A stretch of DNA of 11,761 nt from a virus (Duplodnaviria > Heunggongvirae > Uroviricota > Caudoviricetes). Shown piece after piece: positions 1 to 11,761 of the stretch. Below the pieces are notes generated by a model. That model worked only from the letters and a program-made list of their open reading frames with translations, searched no databases and was not told the origin of the DNA. The stretch lies in IMG/VR virus record IMGVR_UViG_2617271050_000004; one strand, written 5' to 3'. How positions within the stretch are numbered: the stretch's first letter is position 1; each line of letters opens with the position of its first letter. Both the position numbers and the translations under genes were made by a program.

Positions 1-258
1 ATGCAAACCGTTATTTTTGGTCGTTCGGGTTGCCCTTACTGTGTGCGTGCAAAAGATCTGGCTGAGAAATTGAGCAATGAACGCGATGATTTTCAGTATC
101 AGTATGTAGATATTCGTGCGGAAGGGATCACTAAAGAAGATCTACAACAAAAGGCAGGTAAACCCGTAGAAACCGTGCCGCAGATTTTTGTCGATCAGCA
201 ACATATCGGCGGCTATACCGATTTTGCTGCATGGGTGAAAGAAAATCTGGACGCCTGA
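1..258 (+). CDS. grxA: glutaredoxin 1 (85 aa)
   Basis: Complete ORF from ATG at 1 to TGA at 256-258. The translation carries the CPYC redox motif (GRSGCPYCVRAK) and reads as E. coli glutaredoxin 1 from memory. A hairpin follows immediately downstream. Confidence 0.93.
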   Translation: MQTVIFGRSGCPYCVRAKDLAEKLSNERDDFQYQYVDIRAEGITKEDLQQKAGKPVETVPQIFVDQQHIGGYTDFAAWVKENLDA

Positions 259-267
259 TCGTCTGAC

Positions 268-300
268 AAGCCCTCGCGTTGAGGGCTTTACTGATTTTTT
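268..300. terminator. Candidate bidirectional intrinsic terminator between convergent grxA and ybjM
   Basis: Inverted repeat AAGCCCTC (268-275), loop GCGTT, GAGGGCTT (281-288), followed by a T-rich tract ending TTTTTT (295-300). It sits between the grxA stop (258) and the ybjM stop (288-290). Confidence 0.4.
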
Positions 301-665
301 CTGTGCTGTGGTTTAAACAAACTACTGATAAATAAGAAACACAGTGCCCCCAGCGCACACCAGAACACCGCGCTTAGTAACCATGCCAGCTCTTGCCAGA
401 ATGAGCGCGTCGGTGAAAAAAACAGCCGCATAATGAGCATCGAACAGGGTGCCGCCAGCATTGCGCCAAACAGAGGTTTCAGGACTTCTCTACGCTGTGA
501 AAAGAAGCTGGCGACTGCTCCAGGAAGAATGAAAAATAGCAAGCCGATTTCAGGATGCCCGGCAGCCCGAAAAGCGCCTTTCATGTGCGTCGCCAGAAAA
601 AGGCACACCACAATGAAGAGGACAAAACAGCAGATTGCCCCCGCCCAACGTTGTTTATGTTTCAC
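288..665 (-). CDS. ybjM: small inner-membrane protein YbjM (125 aa)
   Basis: 125-aa minus-strand ORF, strongly hydrophobic with several predicted transmembrane stretches. It is convergent with grxA and divergent from ybjL, as in the E. coli K-12 arrangement recalled from memory. Confidence 0.8.
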   Translation of the reverse strand: MKHKQRWAGAICCFVLFIVVCLFLATHMKGAFRAAGHPEIGLLFFILPGAVASFFSQRREVLKPLFGAMLAAPCSMLIMRLFFSPTRSFWQELAWLLSAVFWCALGALCFLFISSLFKPQHRKNQ

Positions 666-934
666 TCGTTCCTCCTGACACTGCGTCTATCGAACACATT
701 TTTCGCCAGTGTGGCGTTCAGTAAGATAAAGCCGCTTCGCATTCCATGCTAATATAGGCCAACGCAATTCATATAGCCGTTGATACCTAATGTGATTACA
801 CTAGTAAAATATATTGTTACTTTACTATCGTTTAGGTGCGCTGAATGAATCTGCGCCCTGAATTCTGGTAAAAAACATTATCGTAAATTACCATTTCTTT
901 CAACAGCTTACTAGTAAACAAGAAGTTAGCCTCC

Positions 935-2620
935 GTGAATATAAACGTCGCCGAATTGTTAAATGGGAATTACATTCTGTTATTATTTGTGGTCCTCGCG
1001 CTTGGGCTATGTCTCGGAAAGTTACGACTTGGTTCGATCCAACTGGGTAATTCCATTGGCGTTTTAGTCGTATCGCTGTTATTAGGCCAACAACATTTCA
1101 GCATTAACACCGATGCGCTTAATCTTGGCTTTATGCTGTTTATTTTCTGCGTCGGGGTCGAAGCCGGACCGAACTTTTTTTCCATTTTTTTTCGCGATGG
1201 GAAAAATTACCTAATGTTAGCACTGGTGATGGTAGGCAGTGCGCTGGTCATCGCCTTAGGGTTAGGTAAGCTGTTTGGCTGGGATATTGGCCTGACGGCC
1301 GGTATGTTAGCAGGCTCTATGACGTCGACACCGGTTCTGGTCGGTGCTGGCGATACACTGCGTCATTCCGGCATGGAAAGCAGGCAGCTCTCACTGGCAC
1401 TGGATAATCTGAGCCTCGGGTATGCCTTAACCTATTTAATCGGTCTGGTGAGTTTGATTGTTGGTGCGCGTTACTTGCCGAAATTGCAGCATCAGGACTT
1501 ACAGACCAGCGCCCAGCAAATCGCCCGCGAACGTGGCCTGGACACTGATGCCAACCGTAAGGTTTATTTACCGGTGATCCGCGCCTATCGCGTCGGCCCG
1601 GAACTGGTGGCCTGGACCGACGGCAAAAATCTGCGTGAACTGGGTATTTATCGACAAACCGGCTGCTACATTGAACGTATTCGACGTAACGGGATTCTGG
1701 CAAATCCAGACGGTGATGCCGTGCTACAAATGGGCGATGAAATAGCGTTGGTAGGCTATCCCGACGCCCATGCCCGACTCGATCCCAGCTTCCGTAACGG
1801 TAAAGAAGTTTTCGATCGTGACCTTCTCGACATGCGTATCGTCACTGAAGAAGTGGTCGTTAAAAACCATAACGCTGTAGGTAAACGTCTCGCACAACTG
1901 AAGTTGACCGATCACGGTTGCTTCCTTAACCGCGTCATTCGTAGCCAGATTGAGATGCCGATAGATGACAACGTCGTGCTTAACAAAGGTGACGTTTTAC
2001 AAGTCAGCGGCGATGCCCGCCGCGTAAAAACCATCGCCGATCGCATCGGCTTTATCTCGATTCACAGCCAGGTCACTGACCTGCTGGCATTCTGCGCCTT
2101 CTTTGTTATTGGGCTGATGATCGGGATGATCACCTTCCAGTTCAGCACATTCAGTTTCGGCATGGGGAACGCTGCCGGGTTGTTATTCGCCGGAATTATG
2201 CTGGGCTTTATGCGTGCTAACCACCCGACCTTCGGTTACATTCCGCAGGGTGCATTAAGCATGGTGAAAGAGTTCGGCTTGATGGTGTTTATGGCAGGCG
2301 TTGGTCTGAGCGCCGGTAGCGGTATTAATAACGGCCTGGGCGCGATTGGCGGTCAGATGTTGATTGCCGGATTGATTGTCAGTCTGGTGCCCGTGGTTAT
2401 CTGTTTCTTGTTCGGTGCTTATGTATTGCGAATGAACCGCGCGCTGTTGTTCGGCGCAATGATGGGCGCACGTACCTGCGCGCCGGCAATGGAGATCATC
2501 AGTGATACAGCTCGCAGTAACATCCCGGCGCTGGGCTATGCGGGCACCTATGCAATCGCCAACGTCCTGCTGACGCTGGCAGGGACAATCATCGTCATGG
2601 TATGGCCAGGATTAGGATAA
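935..2620 (+). CDS. ybjL: putative AAE-family transporter YbjL (561 aa)
   Basis: 561-aa ORF with a GTG start at 935 (MNINVAELL...). It has hydrophobic N- and C-terminal membrane domains around a central soluble region, the architecture of YbjL/YidE-type aspartate:alanine-exchanger family proteins. Length and sequence match E. coli YbjL from memory. Confidence 0.88.
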
Positions 2621-2731
2621 AACTGAAGTTGCCCTGAAAATGAAATTTTTTTGCACAACCGCAGAACTTTTCCGCAGGGCATCAGTCTTAATTAGTGCCA
2701 CTGCTTTTCTTTGATGTCCCCATTTTGTGGA

Positions 2732-2775
2732 GCCCATCAACCCCGCCATTTCGGTTCAAGGTTGATGGGTTTTTT
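2732..2775 (+). terminator. Candidate rho-independent terminator downstream of ybjL
   Basis: Perfect 10-bp inverted repeat CCCATCAACC (2733-2742) and GGTTGATGGG (2760-2769) with a 17-nt loop that can form a further CCG/CGG sub-stem, followed directly by TTTTTT (2770-2775). Confidence 0.5.
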
Positions 2776-2855
2776 GTTGCCTGAAATTTAAGCTATTTAA
2801 AATCATGATGTTAGAAGCACTATTTTTTAACGATGGCGACAAAATGGCGGCAGCG

Positions 2856-3074
2856 TCAAAGAGAGAGCGCCACCTGTCCTGATTTCATTGGATGCGGCTG
2901 AACCGGATTTGACTCTTTTGGCGTTGCAATCGAACGAACAAAAGTTTCATGGGTAACAAAAGTATGGCTGCAGTTAATGTTCTGGCACTGGTTGTAACGC
3001 TCTTTGGTCAATGAAGATACCTGAAAACTGCTGCGAGTATGGGCGGCACTTCCACACAGTGGGCAAATCATCAT
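2856..3074 (-). CDS. ogr: Ogr/Delta-family zinc-finger late-gene transcription activator (about 72 aa)
   Basis: Translation MICPLCGSAAHTRSS...ERYNQCQNINCSHTF has the C-x2-C...C-x4-C zinc-finger pattern of P2 Ogr. I place the start at ATG 3072-3074 rather than the upstream GTG at 3107, because GGGGAGA lies about 9 nt upstream of that ATG and the resulting length matches Ogr. It is the last gene of the tail block, as in P2. Confidence 0.85.
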   Translation of the reverse strand: MMICPLCGSAAHTRSSFQVSSLTKERYNQCQNINCSHTFVTHETFVRSIATPKESNPVQPHPMKSGQVALSL

Positions 3075-3164
3075 TTTTCGAGTTCTCCCCATTTTTGCTA
3101 AATTCACAATAATGATACCGCATTATTCCATTTTGCAAACTTAAAAGTTCTCCATTGCGAAGAA

Positions 3165-4265
3165 TCATTCCATTTCGAAATCATCAATCCTCACTTCAAG
3201 CTCCAGACTGGTTGTAAAACCGTTATCGGGGCTGACGGTATGCGTCAGAGTCGTAATGGTCCATTCCGCATCATCTATCGGCTGTTTAAAGCCACTGACT
3301 TTCACTGGCATTTCCGTGTAGAGATCTGCCCGACCTTCTGCCAGTAGTAGCGAGAATGACGCAACGCCGCGTTGCAGGCGTTCCCACTGCATTTTCGCCG
3401 CCCGTTCGGCGTTGCTCCGGTTGGCATAAGTGCGATTAAGTACCAGCACGTTTTCATCCGTACCCACCAGGTAATCGCCCTGCTTCGCTTCCGGCTCTTT
3501 CTTCTGCTTCTTAGTCCTGCGCTTACGCTTCACCGTGGTGCTTTCTTTCTTCGCGGGTTCGCGGGTATGCAACCAGCTGGCAATTACGCCCGTGTAGGCT
3601 CCGCGATCTGCCAGGGTAAAGCGGTGACTGTCGCCGTCCTTACGTGTGATAGTGATAACCGGTAGTGGTTTACCGCTGGCGCTTTTACCCTGTCCCTGCC
3701 GGATGAATAACAGATTGCCATTTTTCACCGACGCAATAGCACCGTACTGGCGCGCCAGCCGCATCAGAAAACTGCCGTCACTCTCATTGGTCTGGTCTAT
3801 ATGCTCCACGGGTTTATCCGACAGGTCTTCACCCAATGCCATCTTCAGTTTGTGCCGCGCAGATATTTCCTTCACCACTTCCCCAACGGTGGTCTTGTGC
3901 CACGATTTTTCACGGCGGGTATTCAGCGTTTCACGAAAATCAGCACTTCGCGCCCGGATAGTCAGGCGGTCCGGTGCGCCAGTGTGTTCAATCTCGTCCA
4001 CCGTGAATGCCCCTTTCGGGAAAAGCGGCTGCCCCTTCCACCCCAGCGCCAGCGTAATGACCGCACCACGGCGCGGCAGCACGATTTTTCCGTCGGCGTC
4101 GTCCAGCTCCAGATCAAGCTGGTCCGCTTCAAATCCCCGATTGTCCGTCAGCGTCAGACTCATCAGGCGGTTATCCAGCACAGTAGTGATATCCCTGCCC
4201 TCAATACTGATGCTGAATGCGGGAGTTTTGTTGCCTTTGTTAAGCAGTTCAGAGCTGAAATTCAC
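3165..4265 (-). CDS. D: tail protein D (late control gene D family, 366 aa)
   Basis: Translation recognised as P2 gpD family. Position between U and ogr matches P2 order. The start overlaps the U stop by 4 nt. Confidence 0.88.
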   Translation of the reverse strand: MNFSSELLNKGNKTPAFSISIEGRDITTVLDNRLMSLTLTDNRGFEADQLDLELDDADGKIVLPRRGAVITLALGWKGQPLFPKGAFTVDEIEHTGAPDRLTIRARSADFRETLNTRREKSWHKTTVGEVVKEISARHKLKMALGEDLSDKPVEHIDQTNESDGSFLMRLARQYGAIASVKNGNLLFIRQGQGKSASGKPLPVITITRKDGDSHRFTLADRGAYTGVIASWLHTREPAKKESTTVKRKRRTKKQKKEPEAKQGDYLVGTDENVLVLNRTYANRSNAERAAKMQWERLQRGVASFSLLLAEGRADLYTEMPVKVSGFKQPIDDAEWTITTLTHTVSPDNGFTTSLELEVRIDDFEME

Positions 4266-4747
4266 GACAGCAGCCCTCCCACCGTTTTACTGATATCGCT
4301 TAATGCAGACGTTGCCGTGTCCTGCAGATTATTCAGTTGAGTACTGAGATCACCGAACATATCGGACAGGGATTCATCCACCCGTTTTAGCGAAAGGGTG
4401 AACTCAATCCTGCGCGGCATACCGTCGCGGAAAAACTCCGTTTTAGTCTGATTCAGTCCCTCAATCACATACATGCCGTAAATCGTGCCGCTGCCTTCAA
4501 TCAGGGGCCATGCTTTCCCCTGTTCTGCCATCTGCTCCAGTGCCAGCAACGACAGCCTGCCGCCTGTTATTTCCGGCATAAGAACACCGGAAAGCGTCAG
4601 CATGTCGTTTTCCGGTCCCAGAAACTGCGTGGACGGACGTCGGTTTACCCGACTGTTTGCCGCATGTCGCCAGCTGCGTTGATACTGCAGTTCCTGATAC
4701 GGAACGGTGCGCAGCATAAACACGTACAATCCCAGCACCATCATCAT
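4262..4747 (-). CDS. U: tail protein U (161 aa)
   Basis: Size and position between T and D match P2 gpU. Four-nt overlaps with both neighbours indicate translational coupling. Confidence 0.82.
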   Translation of the reverse strand: MMMVLGLYVFMLRTVPYQELQYQRSWRHAANSRVNRRPSTQFLGPENDMLTLSGVLMPEITGGRLSLLALEQMAEQGKAWPLIEGSGTIYGMYVIEGLNQTKTEFFRDGMPRRIEFTLSLKRVDESLSDMFGDLSTQLNNLQDTATSALSDISKTVGGLLS

Positions 4748-7700
4748 GCGTCGTATCCCCCCTGATCGCTGTAGTTACTCCTGGCTTTTGCCTTCAGCCT
4801 GCGTTCACGTTCATCAAGCTGGCGTGCCACCTCCCGCGCAATATCCTGCGCACTTTGTCCTGGCTGCGTCTGAATGATGATCTGCGTCGGTGCCTCAATC
4901 CGTTGAACGAGCGGCACAGTGGCTGCGCGACTCACAATTGCTTCTCCACCTTTCGCGGGAAGTGCCAAAGGGTGCAATGGTGGAAGCTCTGCTGGCGCGG
5001 CAGCAACGCCCATCATTCCGGCAACAACGGCAGCCAGTGCAGCTGTATTTCTCCGGCTGGTCACATTTGCCGGGCCGTTAACAATTTCCGGCCCGTTTTC
5101 ACCGACGATGCCAAACTGCCCGCGCGGGATATACCCGCCGCTGTCATACATCCCCGCAAAGCCATATCCCCATGATGGAAAACCACCCGATGGCATCATC
5201 ACTTTACCGTCTGCATTCACCGTCGCAGGTTGCTGACGCGTCACGCTTTCCGGCAGTTTTGCCTTTGCGGCCTCTTTACTGACAATGCCGAGCTTCTCCA
5301 GCAACCAGGAAACGCCGGATTTCAGGGAGTCCAGCGGATGCATGACCATATTCAGCCCTTCCGCCAGTGCCTCCCCGAATCGCCGCCCCATTGCCGCTGC
5401 GCTCTGCAGTTCGGCAGAGGTCGACTTAACGGGCGTCAGCAGATCAGTAAACCAGCCCCACAGCGCCTGCACTTTGTCGCCAATCCACTGGAACACGGGC
5501 TTAAGCGGTTCGAACGCTGCACTGATGGGACCTGCCGCCGCTTTGAATCCTTCCACCACGCCACCGAGAAATGCGGTGATGGGTTGCCAGTATTTCCAGA
5601 CAACCAGCGCCACGCCCGCCAGTGCAGTAACCACAAGACCTATCGGACTGAGCAGAGCACCTAACAGACCAGATATGGCATACAGGGCAACGCGCAGCAT
5701 CGCCAGTGGACCAGATGCCAGTACTCGCAGCACCGTGCCTGCGGCGGCCAGTCCACCGCGCAGTACCGCCAGAGGATTCATAAACATCACAGCAACAGCA
5801 CGTAAACCGGATAATCCAGACCGCAAAAGTGCAACCGGCGCACCTGCTACAGTTTTCAGGACATTTCCCGTCAGTGATGCCGTGCGGCGCAAAGACGACA
5901 ACGGCGCAGTAAGTAAACCTGCGGCGTTGCCCGATGAAGCAAGCCCGCGTCGCAGCAGTGCCAGTGGCGCGCCAGCCAGCCAGGACAACGCGCTGCTGGT
6001 TCGAGTTACTGCTGCCGTAACGGAAGATAACGTTTTGATACCCAACACAGAGAATCCCAGACGGATCACTGCTAGCGGCCCCAGCACTGCAGCCAGCGCC
6101 ACCGCTAAGGTGCCGAGGCCGACGGTAACCGCAGCCACAACAGCCGATGCTTTCATCAGTGTGCCTGTCAGTTCCGGGTTAGCTTCCACCCAGCGACGCA
6201 ACGCCCCCGTGACGCTTTTCACCGTGTACAGAATATCCATCAGCGGCTGGCGCAGCGTTTCGCCCAGGCTGCTGAAGGTGTTCTGCGCTCCGGTTTTGAC
6301 CAGCAACCACTGCGCAGAAAGTGAATCCTTGTTAATGTCGGATTCTTTCTGCATGGAGCCGAGCGCATCATTGCCCGCTGTCAGTTTTAACTGACGCTGC
6401 AGTTCCGGCAGGTTGTTTGCCAGTTTCGCCGCGTCATCGCCAAACTCTTTACCAAACAACATAGTCATGGCAGACAGGCGCTTGTCCTGCGGCAGCGCGT
6501 TTACCTTCTCCAGCACGCGCTGGATGGTTCCCATCGCATCCTTCGTCATCTGCTTTTCAATCACTTCAGGATTGAGTTTCAGCAGATTCATCCCTTCAAA
6601 GAAACTCTTGCTTTGCATGGTGGCAATGGACAATTCACGCACCATCGCGTTTGCTGCACTGGCTGCAACCTCTGGCGCAGCGCCCAGTGTCAGGAAGGTG
6701 GAACCCAGCGCCGCCGCTTTACGATAATCCAGACGGTCAGCCACACCGCCCAGACGTTGCATCACATCAATGATGTCTGCCCCTTTCGACATGGCGTTAT
6801 CATCCAGATAGTTCAGCGCATCACCGAGCTGTTCAATATTGCGGGTGGGGATTTTGTAGAGCTGGGCGATTTTCCCCAGACTTTCTGACAGTTCATCCGC
6901 TGGCAGCTCAAAGGCTGTTGCCGCCTTTGCTGCCGTACTGGCGAAGGCCAGCAGGTCACGTTTCTGATCTTCCCAGCTGTCGTCAGGGTTTGCGACGTTC
7001 ATGCGCGCACCACCTTCAACCAGTGCAGCGAAGTCCACCGCACCGTTTTCCATCGGCAACTGTTCGCTGGCAGCCTTGATGGCATCCTGCATTTCATAAA
7101 AACGTGCAGTGCGGTTGCCATTATCGTCACGCAGACCATTGACCTGCTTTGCCACACCTTTCATGGCATCTTCCATGCTGGTATAGCTTTTTACTGCCGC
7201 CATCACTGGCGCACCCATTGCCAGCCCTGCAGCCGTGGTGGTGGCTCCGGCACCTGCAATACGATCACGCACCTCCAGCGAACGGGCATAACTGGCACGC
7301 GCCGCATTCATCCTGCGCTGAGCTTCACCCAGTCGCTTCAGCCGCGCCTCCTGTTTCGAAAGCTCCTGGTTATAACGTGATGTTTCACGGGCTAAACGGG
7401 CAGTTGCTCCTGCATCGTCTTTCGCAGAAATTCCCGCCCGGTACAGTTCAGCACGCACAAGCGCCGTCTGCTGCTGCAGCTTTTTCTGGCGTTCTTCCAG
7501 GCGCTGAACAGCCAGCCGTTGACGGCCCAGAGCAACAACCTGACGTTGCGAAGGCGGCCCCATCGCTCCCAGTTCCTGACTGAGCAAATTTGCACGCTGG
7601 CGGGCATAGTTCAGCCTGTCGCCTAATTTCTGATTTTCTGCCTGCAGCTTTCGGAAGCTGTCCAGACTGCTCCCGGCCTGATCAAGCTGCTTTATTGCAT

Positions 7701-7821
7701 CGCGGGATTTTTTGACAGCAGCAGCCAGTTCTCTTGAACTGGCCTGTGCAGATCGAAATGGGCGGGTGAGCTTGTCAACCGCATTAAGAATGACCTGCAG
7801 ACGCAGGTTGTTATCACTCAT
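4744..7821 (-). CDS. T: tail tape measure protein T (1025 aa)
   Basis: Long ORF with a charged, coiled-coil-like N-terminal third, a hydrophobic Ala/Leu/Gly-rich middle with degenerate short repeats (APLALLRRGL, APVALLRSGL, NPLAVLRGGL, GPLAMLRVAL) and a Gly-rich C-terminus. This is typical tape measure architecture, and the gene lies immediately after E/E' as in P2. Confidence 0.9.
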   Translation of the reverse strand: MSDNNLRLQVILNAVDKLTRPFRSAQASSRELAAAVKKSRDAIKQLDQAGSSLDSFRKLQAENQKLGDRLNYARQRANLLSQELGAMGPPSQRQVVALGRQRLAVQRLEERQKKLQQQTALVRAELYRAGISAKDDAGATARLARETSRYNQELSKQEARLKRLGEAQRRMNAARASYARSLEVRDRIAGAGATTTAAGLAMGAPVMAAVKSYTSMEDAMKGVAKQVNGLRDDNGNRTARFYEMQDAIKAASEQLPMENGAVDFAALVEGGARMNVANPDDSWEDQKRDLLAFASTAAKAATAFELPADELSESLGKIAQLYKIPTRNIEQLGDALNYLDDNAMSKGADIIDVMQRLGGVADRLDYRKAAALGSTFLTLGAAPEVAASAANAMVRELSIATMQSKSFFEGMNLLKLNPEVIEKQMTKDAMGTIQRVLEKVNALPQDKRLSAMTMLFGKEFGDDAAKLANNLPELQRQLKLTAGNDALGSMQKESDINKDSLSAQWLLVKTGAQNTFSSLGETLRQPLMDILYTVKSVTGALRRWVEANPELTGTLMKASAVVAAVTVGLGTLAVALAAVLGPLAVIRLGFSVLGIKTLSSVTAAVTRTSSALSWLAGAPLALLRRGLASSGNAAGLLTAPLSSLRRTASLTGNVLKTVAGAPVALLRSGLSGLRAVAVMFMNPLAVLRGGLAAAGTVLRVLASGPLAMLRVALYAISGLLGALLSPIGLVVTALAGVALVVWKYWQPITAFLGGVVEGFKAAAGPISAAFEPLKPVFQWIGDKVQALWGWFTDLLTPVKSTSAELQSAAAMGRRFGEALAEGLNMVMHPLDSLKSGVSWLLEKLGIVSKEAAKAKLPESVTRQQPATVNADGKVMMPSGGFPSWGYGFAGMYDSGGYIPRGQFGIVGENGPEIVNGPANVTSRRNTAALAAVVAGMMGVAAAPAELPPLHPLALPAKGGEAIVSRAATVPLVQRIEAPTQIIIQTQPGQSAQDIAREVARQLDERERRLKAKARSNYSDQGGYDA

Positions 7822-8250
7822 CGTTGGCCCCGCTTCTCTGAATCGCTTTATACCGCCATTCCAGCACTTCGGTCAGCGGCATAACGTCAGTAACGGATGG
7901 CGGCCAGTGAAAAATGGTGGCGATATCTGCCACCAGATCGTCAACCGTCAGGCTGTCGGCAAACCGGCAAGCACCGACTTCTTCAACAAAAAAGTGACAA
8001 CCTCAACCGACATGGCAGTGAGATCTGCCGGGTCCATCTCTGCAATTTCCTGTGCAGTCAGTGCCGGACTGGAGATGCGGGGGATCACGGTCATCATCGC
8101 GTTTACATCCATATCCATAATGGCCTGCAGGCGTGTACCGCGCAGCGCACCGGACTGCGGTTTACGCAGCACAATTTCGGTGATTTCTGTTTTACCGCGC
8201 TTGATGGGGGTATCCAGTTGAATGGTCTTTTCAGTCTGCTTATCGCTCAT
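7814..8250 (-). CDS. E+E': tail assembly chaperone E+E' (about 145 aa), made by programmed -1 ribosomal frameshift at 7987-7993
   Basis: On the minus strand the zero-frame codons ACT TTT TTG form the heptamer T_TTT_TTG. After a -1 slip the reading frame stays open for 57 codons (VEEVGACRFADSLTVDDLVADIATIFHWPPSVTDVMPLTEVLEWRYKAIQRSGANDE) and ends at TGA 7814-7816, overlapping the T start codon (7819-7821). I translated this by hand from the sequence. Confidence 0.75.
7948..8250 (-). CDS. E: tail assembly chaperone E (100 aa, zero-frame product)
   Basis: Small ORF between FII and T, the position of P2 gene E. It contains the slippery heptamer near its 3' end. Confidence 0.82.
   Translation of the reverse strand: MSDKQTEKTIQLDTPIKRGKTEITEIVLRKPQSGALRGTRLQAIMDMDVNAMMTVIPRISSPALTAQEIAEMDPADLTAMSVEVVTFLLKKSVLAGLPTA
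7987..7993 (-). other. Programmed -1 frameshift slippery heptamer TTTTTTG (plus strand CAAAAAA)
   Basis: Exact X_XXY_YYZ heptamer in the E zero frame. It sits where the E/E' (lambda G/GT-like) frameshift is expected, about 87 codons into E. Confidence 0.75.
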
Positions 8251-8829: not shown

Positions 8830-10002
8830 TTACGCGCTGACCTGGCTGGCGAAATTCACCAGGTACTGATCGGTGATGCGCTGACGCAGCATCAGGTTTT
8901 CAAGTGGCGGCACTGGCGTGTAGTCGTAGTCGATGGTGAGTTTTCCGGCTTTCAGCGTGTCTTTGTCGTTCACCGACTCATCCAGCCAGCAATCACCACC
9001 AATGAGATAGCCCTGACTGACCAGGCTGCGCATTTTGGCGCGGATACCTTCGATAATGTCGCGGGCCAGCGACGGGTTAAGCGGTTTATCCACCGCCCAC
9101 AGGTGTGCTTCTGCCATCGTGTCCATCAGCACCTGCGCCGTGCGGGTGTAGTTTTCGAAGGCAAAGAGCGGGTCATCACTCAGGCAGCGGGAACCCCAGA
9201 AGCGGAAACCGTCTTTACGCACAAGCGTGGTGACGTCGTTCTGGTTCAGCAGACCTGCATCGGTTGCCGGGTCCTGCAGATCCCAGAACACATCTGCAGA
9301 AATTCCGGTGACACCGTTCACGCCCACGTTGGACAGGCTTTTGTGCCATCCGGTCTGCTCGTCAATTTTGGCGCGCAGACCAAGCGCACGGGCGGTGGCA
9401 TATGCCGTTGCTTCGGCATTCAGCACCGTGTCCCAGCCAGTAAAGTCAGGCCAGATCAGCATCCCTTCGCGCTGGCTGAAGTTTTCGCGGTAAGTGATCG
9501 CCTCCTGCACTGTCTTGCAGCCATACGCTGACAGGTAAGCAAATCCACGCAGGCTTTGCGCCACGCTTAGCAACTCAGTAGCTACCGCCTTGGTGTCGTG
9601 GCCTGGCACGCCGAGAATGCGCGGTTTAACGCCGAGCTGTGACTGGGCAGATAACAGGGCTTTCATACCTGTTTTTTTACCTTCAGCAGTCACTGCGCCG
9701 ATGATATTGGTCGTGGTTTCGTCTTCCGTTTCACCCTGCGGCACACGCACAACAATGGTCACGGGTTTTGCCTGGTCAGCGATGGCATCCAGCGAACGGG
9801 CCAGAGTACCTGACTCACCCGCTTTACCGCTGGCAGTCAGCACATCAGTGATCAGCACGGGTTTATTAAGAGGAAACATTTTTGCATCGGCATCATCGCC
9901 CGTGCAGACCATACCCACGATGGCGGTGCTCACCGTGGTAATGGATCGGGTGCCTTCGTTGACTTCAACAACGCGCACCCCGTGGTGGTAATCCTGAGCC
10001 AT
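8830..10002 (-). CDS. FI: contractile tail sheath protein FI (390 aa)
   Basis: Translation [34 protein letters not shown]... is closely similar to P2 FI from memory. A strong RBS (AGGAGG) lies about 9 nt upstream of ATG 10000-10002. Confidence 0.92.
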
Positions 10003-10078
10003 AGTGGCGAACCTCCTGATTGGATTAGGCTTCGCCCTATGTTGAAGTGATTGTGCCTGACAAACAGCTAAGCGCAGT

Positions 10079-10096
10079 TGTACCGTTATTCACACA
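10079..10096 (-). promoter_or_regulatory. Candidate Ogr-dependent P2-type late promoter activator site (TGT-N12-ACA) for the FI operon
   Basis: Palindromic TGT-N12-ACA element centred at 10087/10088, about 85 nt upstream of the FI start codon. This fits an activator site centred near -55 with a roughly 30-nt leader. No good -35 is present, as expected for an activator-dependent promoter. Confidence 0.4.
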
Positions 10097-10144
10097 AAAT
10101 GACGGTATTTGTCTGCTTTCAGGGATAATCAAAATAAAGCTGAT

Positions 10145-10711
10145 TCAGGGAGATTTATTGCTCTTATTTGCCGGAAATTTTCGATAAATGGTAGAAACGC
10201 CTACATCAAAAATCAGTGCAATACGCTGTCTTGATTCTCCGGCCTCGAGTAAACGCCCAATCTGTGCCCACTGTTCGCTGGTCAACTTAGGACGGCGTCC
10301 ACCTACTCTGCCCTTAGCACGAGCTGCAGCCAGCCCCGCCCTGGTACGTTCAACTATCAGTTCGCGTTCCATTTCAGCCAGGGCACCCATGACATGAAAA
10401 AAGAAACGGCCCATTGGGGTGCTGGTATCAATACTGTCAGTCAGGCTTCGGAAATTCACGCCACGCTGGCGCAGCTCTTCTATCAGCGTAACAAGATGCC
10501 GCATACTGCGCCCCAGTCTGTCCAGCTTCCAGACAACCAGCGTGTCTCCTGCCGATAGTGTCCTGAGCAGCTTTTTCAGCCCCGGTCTGTCTGACTTGGT
10601 GCCACTGATTTTATCCTCAAAAATCCGCTCACATCCCGCACAGTTCAGTGCATTGCGTTGCAAATCGGTGTTCTGGTCATTTGTTGACACGCGTACATAG
10701 CCAATAAGCAT
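10145..10711 (-). CDS. serine-recombinase DNA invertase (Gin/Hin/Pin/Cin family, about 188 aa)
   Basis: N-terminus MLIGYVRVSTNDQNTDLQRNAL... with the catalytic serine context VRVSTxxQ, and a C-terminal helix-turn-helix (VGVSTIYRKF). It is near-identical in pattern to the e14 Pin and Mu Gin invertases. I place the start at the second ATG (10709-10711) because GGGGGA lies about 5 nt upstream; the ORF track starts 6 nt earlier. Confidence 0.9.
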   Translation of the reverse strand: MLIGYVRVSTNDQNTDLQRNALNCAGCERIFEDKISGTKSDRPGLKKLLRTLSAGDTLVVWKLDRLGRSMRHLVTLIEELRQRGVNFRSLTDSIDTSTPMGRFFFHVMGALAEMERELIVERTRAGLAAARAKGRVGGRRPKLTSEQWAQIGRLLEAGESRQRIALIFDVGVSTIYRKFPANKSNKSP

Positions 10712-10738
10712 GATCATCCCCCTGAATAAAAACCGGAA

Positions 10739-11290
10739 ATGATGCCAGTTAGCCGTTATCTCTGCATTTTCATAAACGTTGGTTTAGGAGAAGGCTCAGC
10801 ATTGCCTGTTGGCGTACCTGTTCCGTGGCCCTCAGCCACTCCGCCAACAGGCTGGCTAAAATGCAACGGAGCAGCTTTTTCTGCTGAAGAATACCCAGAA
10901 CTGGCAAAGGCTTACCCGACAAATAAATTGCCTGATTTACGTGGTGAGTTTATTCGTGGCTGGGATGACGGACGTGGTATGGATACGGGGAGGGCAATAT
11001 TATCAGCTCAGGGCGATGCCATACGTAATATCTATGGTGAGTTCAAGACTGTAAACACCGAAAATTATTCAATATGGGAATCAGTAGGCTCGTTTAAGGG
11101 GGCAGTGGTGCCTTTGAATCCATCAACGAACAATAGTTATTTCTCCTTAATCAGAAGTATGGTGACTGAAAGAACAGATGGCGCTGTTTACCCAAAAGTG
11201 ATTGGCCTTGATGCTTCAAGAATTGTTCCAACTGCAAACGAAAACCGTCCTCGTAACATTGCCTTTAATTATATCGTGAGAGCTGCCTGA
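10739..11290 (+). CDS. tail-fibre C-terminal variable cassette (alternative, currently unfused orientation)
   Basis: The ORF starts in or at the crossover site and reads into the segment. The translation (GVPVPWPSATPPTGWLKCNGAAFSAEEYPELAKAYPTNKLPDLRGEFIRGWDDGRGMD...) resembles the receptor-binding C-terminal part of phage tail fibres (Mu S/S', P1 S, P2 H). There is no convincing RBS and no N-terminal constant part on this strand. Its stop overlaps the start of the downstream assembly gene (TGATG). Confidence 0.7.
   Translation: MMPVSRYLCIFINVGLGEGSALPVGVPVPWPSATPPTGWLKCNGAAFSAEEYPELAKAYPTNKLPDLRGEFIRGWDDGRGMDTGRAILSAQGDAIRNIYGEFKTVNTENYSIWESVGSFKGAVVPLNPSTNNSYFSLIRSMVTERTDGAVYPKVIGLDASRIVPTANENRPRNIAFNYIVRAA
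10767..10792. promoter_or_regulatory. Candidate 26-bp invertase crossover site (gix/hix-like) bounding the invertible tail-fibre segment
   Basis: TTTTCATAAACG-TT-GGTTTAGGAGAA: two imperfect 12-bp inverted half-sites around a 2-bp core, with the AAAC..GGTTT centre typical of gix/hix sites (about 9 of 12 matches per half-site to TTATCAAAAACC as recalled). It lies 56 bp from the invertase start, inside the 5' end of the tail-fibre cassette ORF. Confidence 0.45.
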
Positions 11291-11554
11291 TGAATAAAGC
11301 CGTATTAAATAACGAACTCATTGCCATAAAAGCGGGAGACATTACCATTTATAATTATGATGGTGAAACGCGGGAATATATTTCCACATCAACTGAATAT
11401 CTTGCGGTTGGCGTCGGTATCCCGGCATGTTCTTGTTTAGATGCACCAGTTACACATAAAGCTGGTTATGCAATCTGCCGATCTGCAGATTTTAACTCAT
11501 GGGAATGTGTGCCAGACCATCGCGGTGAAATCGTCTTTAGCACCGAAACAGGAN
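11290..11554 (+). CDS. tail-fibre assembly protein (Tfa/U'-like), N-terminal part, truncated by the assembly gap
   Basis: Translation MNKAVLNNELIAIKAGDITIYNYDGETREYI... has the look of Tfa N-terminal domains and is start/stop-coupled to the preceding tail-fibre cassette. The ORF runs into the N-run at 11555. Confidence 0.65.
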
Positions 11555-11564
11555 NNNNNNNNNG
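11555..11564. other. Assembly gap (10 N)
   Basis: A run of ten n characters. Coding frames on the two sides are incompatible, so the true gap is larger than 10 bp or the join is artificial. Confidence 0.95.
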
Positions 11565-11761
11565 GCGTTAAGTCGGGTTGTTTCTGCCTGCGTCAGTTTA
11601 CGTGCGGCCTGCAATTTCAGCTGAATCAGACTGATGGAAGCCATTGCAGCATCAATCAGTGACTGACGCTGTGCTTCTGCCGCGTCTACTGCGGCATTAT
11701 GCTGTGCCTCAGTATCTGTCACCCATTTCTCACCATCCCATTTATCGTATGGCGTTAACGG
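11565..11761 (-). CDS. tail-fibre assembly protein (Tfa/U-like), C-proximal fragment; N-terminus lies beyond the window end, C-terminus is lost in the gap
   Basis: The minus-strand frame is open from the window edge: PLTPYDKWDGEKWVTDTEAQHNAAVDAAEAQRQSLIDAAMASISLIQLKLQAARKLTQAETTRLNA. This matches the conserved C-terminal region of lambda/e14-type Tfa proteins from memory. It is convergent with the plus-strand tfa, as in Mu G or P1 C invertible segments. Confidence 0.65.

Follow-up and report, generated by a model that had tools for sequence, protein, structure and literature searches.

The interval between positions 2621 and 2855 of the analyzed stretch of DNA (11,761 nucleotides, referred to here as the window) is almost certainly the ogr-side attachment junction of a P2-family prophage with a 186-type early region, which was integrated by a tyrosine integrase into the 3' end of the small-RNA gene rybB. 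The prophage belongs to a Fels-2/PhiECO1-like lineage, and the correct label for the interval is rybB together with the int-distal att junction of a rybB-integrating P2/186-like prophage. A sequence-only reading of the window had rightly placed one attachment site in this interval and had left the integration site itself open; the site can now be given. The boundary between host and phage DNA lies at 2778/2779, directly behind a 14-bp core, ATGGGTTTTTTGTT (2765-2778), and the use of rybB as a P2-like insertion site is already known as a common, published hotspot. The finding has little importance beyond the correct annotation of the interval. It offers a clean textbook case of a temperate phage that takes the 3' end of a gene for a small RNA as its attB and preserves the RNA, at a site that is a known hotspot for prophages carrying defence systems in E. 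coli and Klebsiella.

The window begins with three genes of the host backbone. These are grxA (1-258, plus strand; an 85-aa ORF, annotated as grxA at the equivalent position of L001, a K-12-like genome with an empty site), ybjM (288-665, minus strand; a 125-aa ORF, annotated as ybjM in L001 and in a second genome, L002) and the aspartate:alanine antiporter gene ybjL (935-2620, plus strand; a 561-aa ORF). The ybjL label is found under the match in thousands of genomes, including genomes that are more than 99.8% identical in the region. After a gap of 235 bp (2621-2855), the outermost prophage gene on this side is the late-gene activator ogr (2856-3074, minus strand), which matches Pfam Ogr_Delta (78 bits, E = 5e-22) and is annotated as ogr/Delta-like in the matching genomes. 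This layout, grxA-ybjM-ybjL followed after about 235 bp by ogr, had been proposed from the sequence and was borne out by the ORFs, the Pfam matches and the annotations of the matching genomes. A gpD-like tail/late control gene (3165-4265, minus strand; Pfam Phage_GPD) opens a P2-type block of tail genes, which continues until the window ends, with gpU (4262-4747), the tape measure gene (4744-7821), and the tail chaperone E, tube and sheath genes (up to 10002), all P2-type late genes on the minus strand. The DNA of the tail block is 95-98% identical to Peduoviridae phages, and ogr and every tail gene as far as the sheath have an intact reading frame and a Pfam match of full length.

At the far end of the window, a serine DNA invertase gene (Resolvase and HTH_7 domains; 10145-10717, minus strand) adjoins tail-fibre pieces, namely a C-terminal fragment with a Collar domain (10739-11290, plus strand), whose start context is not obvious, and a further ORF (11290-11571, plus strand). 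The segment 10145-11571 looks like an invertible tail-fibre cassette of the Gin/Cin/Pin type. No inverted repeat of 14 bp or longer that could represent the recombination sites of the invertase was found within 9900-11761, and the partner site therefore probably lies beyond the window.

The gap between ybjL and ogr had been described as non-coding DNA, which holds as far as protein genes are concerned, since there are none in 2621-2855, but the interval contains a complete small-RNA gene with its own promoter. An Rfam scan of the whole window returned a single match, RybB (RF00110), at 2700-2778 on the plus strand, with 105.3 bits against a gathering score of 40, E = 2.3e-21, and coverage of model positions 1-79 of 79. 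The rybB gene (2697-2778, plus strand) is complete, unaltered and identical to the sequence of the K-12-like empty site; G2697 is what we take to be the 5' end of the RybB transcript. Upstream of it, a sigma-E-type promoter (2664-2690, plus strand) can be read from the sequence as GAACTT (2664-2669), a 16-nt spacer and TCTTA (2686-2690), followed by 6 nt to G2697. The assignment to sigma-E presumably holds, given the sigma-E dependence of rybB and the sigma-E consensus. According to the annotations of empty-site genomes, rybB is located between ybjL and rcdA (ybjK). As a class, RybB sRNAs are Hfq-bound regulators of omp mRNAs.

The RNA of 2697-2778 is predicted to fold with -25.2 kcal/mol (z = -3.3), and none of 200 shuffled sequences folded as well. 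The fold contains the RybB terminator hairpin (2731-2771, plus strand), which is also paired in the Rfam consensus structure and is followed by the U-tract at 2772-2778. A consensus terminator scan of 2500-3200 gave no match and missed this hairpin because its loop exceeds the limit of the scan (3-8 nt). A terminator hairpin at 2733-2775, close to or within the junction, had previously been assigned to ybjL; its location within the junction is correct, but both Rfam and the fold show that it belongs to rybB. The core ATGGGTTTTTTGTT represents the end of the 3' stem arm of RybB plus the U-tract, that is, the last 14 nt of the gene, and the copy at 2765-2778 is the ogr-side (int-distal) one. In addition, the sequence CCGCCATTT (2743-2751, plus strand), in the loop of the same hairpin on the host side of the core, fits the arm-site motif of 186-type integrases. 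This is probably due to chance, as the window contains 5 matches to the motif where 2.15 are expected.

It could be argued that the actual target of the integrase is the protein gene ybjL, at its 3' end or terminator, and that rybB is there incidentally, considering that the hairpin is the first strong terminator-like structure past ybjL and may also stop read-through from this gene. We regard this as very improbable: the core lies 145 bp beyond the ybjL stop codon and is exactly the final 14 nt of a RybB match that is complete and has a promoter of its own, Klebsiella phages use the same core in the same rybB context, and rybB is named as the target in the literature. Targeting of a tRNA or tmRNA gene was ruled out, as ARAGORN found neither in the window. 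The earlier statement that no tRNA-like sequence is evident is thus correct, though the target is still a structured RNA gene, rybB.

In order to locate the breakpoint, window positions 2200-3200 were compared by megablast with 5426 complete E. coli genomes. The ybjL side was present in 5419 of them, and the whole query was covered in only 1115, which have the window-type junction. In the other genomes the alignment ended at query position 579 or 591, corresponding to window positions 2778 or 2790. A base-by-base comparison of window positions 1-2778 with L001 revealed two mismatches, both of them within ybjL, and host homology is lost from 2779 on. An alignment to a prophage-free genome had been suggested as the way to find the breakpoint, and this one places it at 2778/2779, inside the interval and inside the hairpin/T-run of 2731-2778, not at a distance from it. 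The first 12 bp of the phage P' arm (2779-2790), gcctgaaattta, match the displaced host flank, atctaaaactta, in 8 of 12 positions, which is why some of the megablast alignments reach 2790 rather than 2778.

In the empty genomes, ybjL is directly followed by the convergent gene rcdA. A query made of the empty rybB-rcdA junction was contiguous in 4227 of the 5426 genomes, each of these seamless junctions having a single copy of the core; in the genomes in which the junction is split, the first base of the core (query position 187) is precisely where the piece on the rcdA side starts. About 20% of the complete E. coli genomes are occupied at the rybB site. The genome NZ_CP135595.1 carries a degraded prophage at this site (4657-8004 of locus L010), with a divergent ogr and with truncated tape-measure and sheath pseudogenes, which shows that prophage decay in place has occurred in some strains.

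The window covers only part of the prophage, and for the int-side junction, the integrase and attP the analysis turned to other genomes, in which the ogr-side junction shows 99.6-99.8% identity to that of the window. The junction of strain RM14721 is 99.8% identical, with no indels. The RM14721 prophage spans the region from rcdA to ybjL, and its rcdA end carries int, cI, an apl-like gene, cII and fil, which together constitute a 186-type early region. Its int-side junction reads ...cattaaCCCATTTACATAAATGGGTTTTTTGTT|atctaaaactta...rcdA, and the sequence common to the two junctions and the empty site is the 14-bp core ATGGGTTTTTTGTT. The short direct repeat shared by both junctions, which had been suggested as a check, is therefore this core; the int-side copy, beside rcdA, was read in RM14721 and is also present in the near-identical lysogen E. 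coli HS. The two copies of RM14721 are 32,965 bp apart. The int-side copy is preceded by a phage-borne hairpin, CCCATTTACATAAATGGG (-9.4 kcal/mol), located downstream of int and of an 89-aa ORF, so that a hairpin followed by a T-run is found at both junctions. The phage hairpin, together with the T-run of the core, may act as a terminator of the int operon. We also considered, and rejected, that the phage has a diverged repeat of the rybB 3' half, such as tRNA-targeting phages carry: a permissive Rfam scan of the int-side junction gave one chance-level match and no RybB. The phage thus contributes just 14 bp and an unrelated short hairpin.

The two phage arms were joined to obtain a predicted attP. 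This sequence was found as a contiguous segment of 260 bp, with 96.5% identity, between int and ogr of Klebsiella phage KP12, and the segment spans the P arm, the core and the P' arm. Moreover, the annotated attL and attR in the GenBank record of Klebsiella phage 4LV2017 both contain the core ATGGGTTTTTTGTT. Two other features of the int side can be mentioned. The 89-aa ORF (WP_001032044.1), which has no Pfam match, is situated between int and attP in the prophages of RM14721 and HS (748-1017 of locus L003, minus strand, and the equivalent place in L011), the place occupied by Orf69 in phage 186; KP12 does not have this ORF. Two direct repeats, AACTTATTGTTTT, are located about 20-60 bp to the int side of the core (reverse strand of locus L003, outside the window), between the core and the arm sites, in the position of the Apl (excisionase) sites of phage 186. 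The repeats also have an IHF-like score on the opposite strand.

The integrase of RM14721, which has Int_N and Phage_integrase domains, shows 55% identity to the integrase of phage 186 and 35% to that of P2. The same accession (WP_000290938.1) is found in both RM14721 and E. coli HS, and the window ends before int. Nilsson et al. gave three discriminating positions in the Int N-terminus, in the numbering of their own alignment (PMC3448106). By reading of pairwise alignments, the residues at these positions are W11, E14 and Y16, which are the 186-type states, as opposed to Y/D/R in P2 Int. Two tandem 186-type integrase arm-binding sites in an 11-bp phase are predicted on the minus strand of the window (2832-2853), TGCCGCCATTT (2853-2843) and TGTCGCCATCG (2842-2832), and 2 bp separate this block from the ogr stop codon at 2856. 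The int-side arm carries a matching pair, TGCCGCCACTT and TGTCGCCACTT. The sites fit both the consensus YAYCGCCAYTY of the annotated phage 186 record and the tgccGCCActt consensus of Nilsson et al. (PMC3448106), and the pair is conserved in both KP12 and 4LV2017. A consensus scan matched an IHF-like site, AATCATGATGTTA (2801-2813, plus strand), in the segment from the core to the arm sites, with one mismatch to WATCAANNNNTTR; by analogy with the IHF footprints annotated in the attP of P2 and 186, it may act as an IHF site. No clear inverted core-type Int-binding sites were seen by eye around the core.

The loss of the block by deletion in the "empty" genomes, with ogr and the tail genes being ancestral at this locus and the interval not an integration junction, has practically no likelihood in light of these data. 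Apart from the presence of the block in about one fifth of the complete genomes, nothing specific speaks for it, whereas 4227 genomes show a seamless rybB-rcdA junction with a single core copy, the core is duplicated exactly at both ends in occupied genomes, the joined ends form a contiguous attP in a phage genome, and the element carries an integrase with matching arm sites. Prophage-free genomes carrying the ogr-to-tfa block at this locus, which the sequence-only reading had named as a sign of an ancestral block, were not seen.

Integration into the 3' end of rybB would proceed as follows. The 186-type tyrosine integrase would bridge the arm and core sites of attP, most likely assisted by IHF bending, and the attP core would recombine with the identical last 14 bp of rybB, between ybjL and rcdA; an Apl/Cox-like excisionase would act in the reverse reaction. 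Neither strand exchange can lie farther out than the edges of ATGGGTTTTTTGTT, given that the flanks are purely host or purely phage at each junction. Recombination in the core would leave rybB complete on the ogr side, promoter and terminator included, and would place the second core copy on the int side, next to rcdA and behind the phage hairpin CCCATTTACATAAATGGG. As the crossover falls within a sequence that is also carried by the phage, the lysogen has a rybB that matches that of K-12 in every base. Expression of RybB is probably unaffected by the insertion.

Four papers give rybB as an insertion site of P2-like prophages (PMC3032704, PMC3448106, PMC4048246 and PMC10121019). Archer and co-workers (2011) named the rybB ncRNA as the insertion site of the P2-like Rybb*W, Rybb*B and Rybb*Cr, with retron Ec86 carried by Rybb*B (PMC3032704), and Nilsson and co-workers (2011) reported that the integration site of PhiECO1 is common to prophages of E. 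coli HS, ATCC 8739, CFT073 and S. Typhi CT18 (PMC3448106). The PhiECO1-type or Rybb* group includes PhiECO1 of E. coli HS, PhiECO2/Rybb*Cr of ATCC 8739, PhiECO3 of CFT073, Rybb*W of E. coli W and Rybb*B of E. coli B (PMC3448106, PMC3032704, PMC10121019). Hochhauser and co-workers (2023) listed the site as hotspot #29, with only Felsduovirus prophages within rybB in 109 genomes (PMC10121019); rybB is not named in the main text of Bobay et al. 2013 (PMC3603311), which they cite for it. In Klebsiella, the rybB-integrated Kpn38RybB was described by Hudson and co-workers in 2014 (PMC4048246).

The window junction is identical to the PhiECO1 junction of E. coli HS in 509 of 511 positions, and the published coordinates of PhiECO1 (916812-948276) map to the int-side core and, on the ogr side, to window position 2778. 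As in PhiECO1 and the Rybb* prophages, the insertion lies between rybB and rcdA; there is no substantive difference at the junction, and the cargo and tail-fibre regions vary among the members of the group. These comparisons also bear on whether the junction could be the decayed remnant of an old insertion, a grounded prophage unable to excise, instead of a functional att site. The int end is outside the window, and in NZ_CP135595, at least, the site holds a degraded prophage with truncated tape-measure and sheath genes, but we consider a remnant improbable for the window prophage, since its core and P' arm sites are intact, as are ogr and the tail genes as far as the sheath, its junction is nearly the same (509/511) as that of PhiECO1, which has a full length of 31.5 kb (PMC3448106), and complete prophages with int are present in near-identical lysogens.

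The Klebsiella Peduoviridae Kpn38RybB, 4LV2017 (KY271398) and KP12 (OM835953) share the same core and the same rybB target, and the P' arm with its arm sites is about 96% identical to that of the window in the Klebsiella rybB phages. The identity between attB and attP extends to 19 bp in Klebsiella, ATGGGTTTTTTGTTGCCTG (4LV2017: 101-119 of locus L004 and 8-27 of locus L005), as compared to 14 bp plus 8 of the next 12 positions for the E. coli attB. Klebsiella and E. coli have nearly identical rybB regions. It is worth mentioning that the KP12 record, OM835953.1, is labelled Vequintavirinae yet carries a P2-type int-attP-ogr-D segment; this record may represent co-assembled or induced prophage sequence under the name of a lytic phage.

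On the minus strand between the ogr stop codon and the att core (2779-2855), a terminator scan with a loop limit of 3-8 nt recognized no hairpin-plus-T-run terminator, whereas P2 and 186 have a strong annotated terminator directly after ogr and its 186 homologue B, respectively. Owing to the lack of a recognizable terminator after ogr, antisense read-through to rybB would be possible on induction. It is conceivable, though doubtful, that ogr/late-operon transcripts leave the prophage after induction and run antisense across rybB, and that the attP hairpin and the shared T-run end the int operon, in which case integration would swap two terminators. If this were true, the read-through could damp both RybB and the sigma-E response to envelope stress while the phage grows lytically. 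Neither the read-through antisense to rybB nor the terminator swap, both of which are speculative, is described in PMC3032704, PMC3448106, PMC4048246 or PMC10121019.

The absence of the canonical P2 attP core had been taken to suggest a P2 relative with a different integration specificity, and both parts of this proposal agree with the present analysis. The 27-bp P2 core, AAAAAATAAGCCCGTGTAAGGGAGATT, taken from the annotated P2 record NC_001895, had no match at up to 3 mismatches, and the P2-type arm motif TGTGGACA was not found in the P' arm (2779-2855). Likewise, the 36-bp common core of phage 186 (ileY) had no match. The specificity of P2 was therefore ruled out by the absence of both its core and its arm motif and by the 35% identity to P2 Int, and that of 186 by the absence of the ileY core and of any tRNA in the window; the integrase and arm sites are of the 186 type, and the core is neither that of P2 nor that of 186.

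The prophage nevertheless resembles coliphage P2 in the location of attP between ogr and int and in a tyrosine integrase that has arm sites and would use core sites and IHF, while it differs from P2 in the core, in the P' arm and in Int. The resemblance to coliphage 186 is closer: the gene order is late activator, attP, (small ORF), int and cI in both, and the prophage shares with 186 the W/E/Y residues of Int and the CGCCA-type tandem arm sites on both arms. Phage 186, however, recombines in a 36-bp core inside the tRNA-Ile gene ileY, which is absent here. Other attachment sites in RNA genes include cyaR/ryeE (P2-like phages), ryeB/sdsR (Salmonella) and ssrA (Fels-2) (PMC3603311, PMC3032704, PMC3448106). 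As in these cases, the insertion takes place at the 3' end of a structured RNA gene, and the phage regenerates the end of the gene, which is kept intact. In contrast to them, the RNA gene is a different one, and the regenerated segment is very short, consisting of 14 bp that comprise the stem end and the U-tract only.
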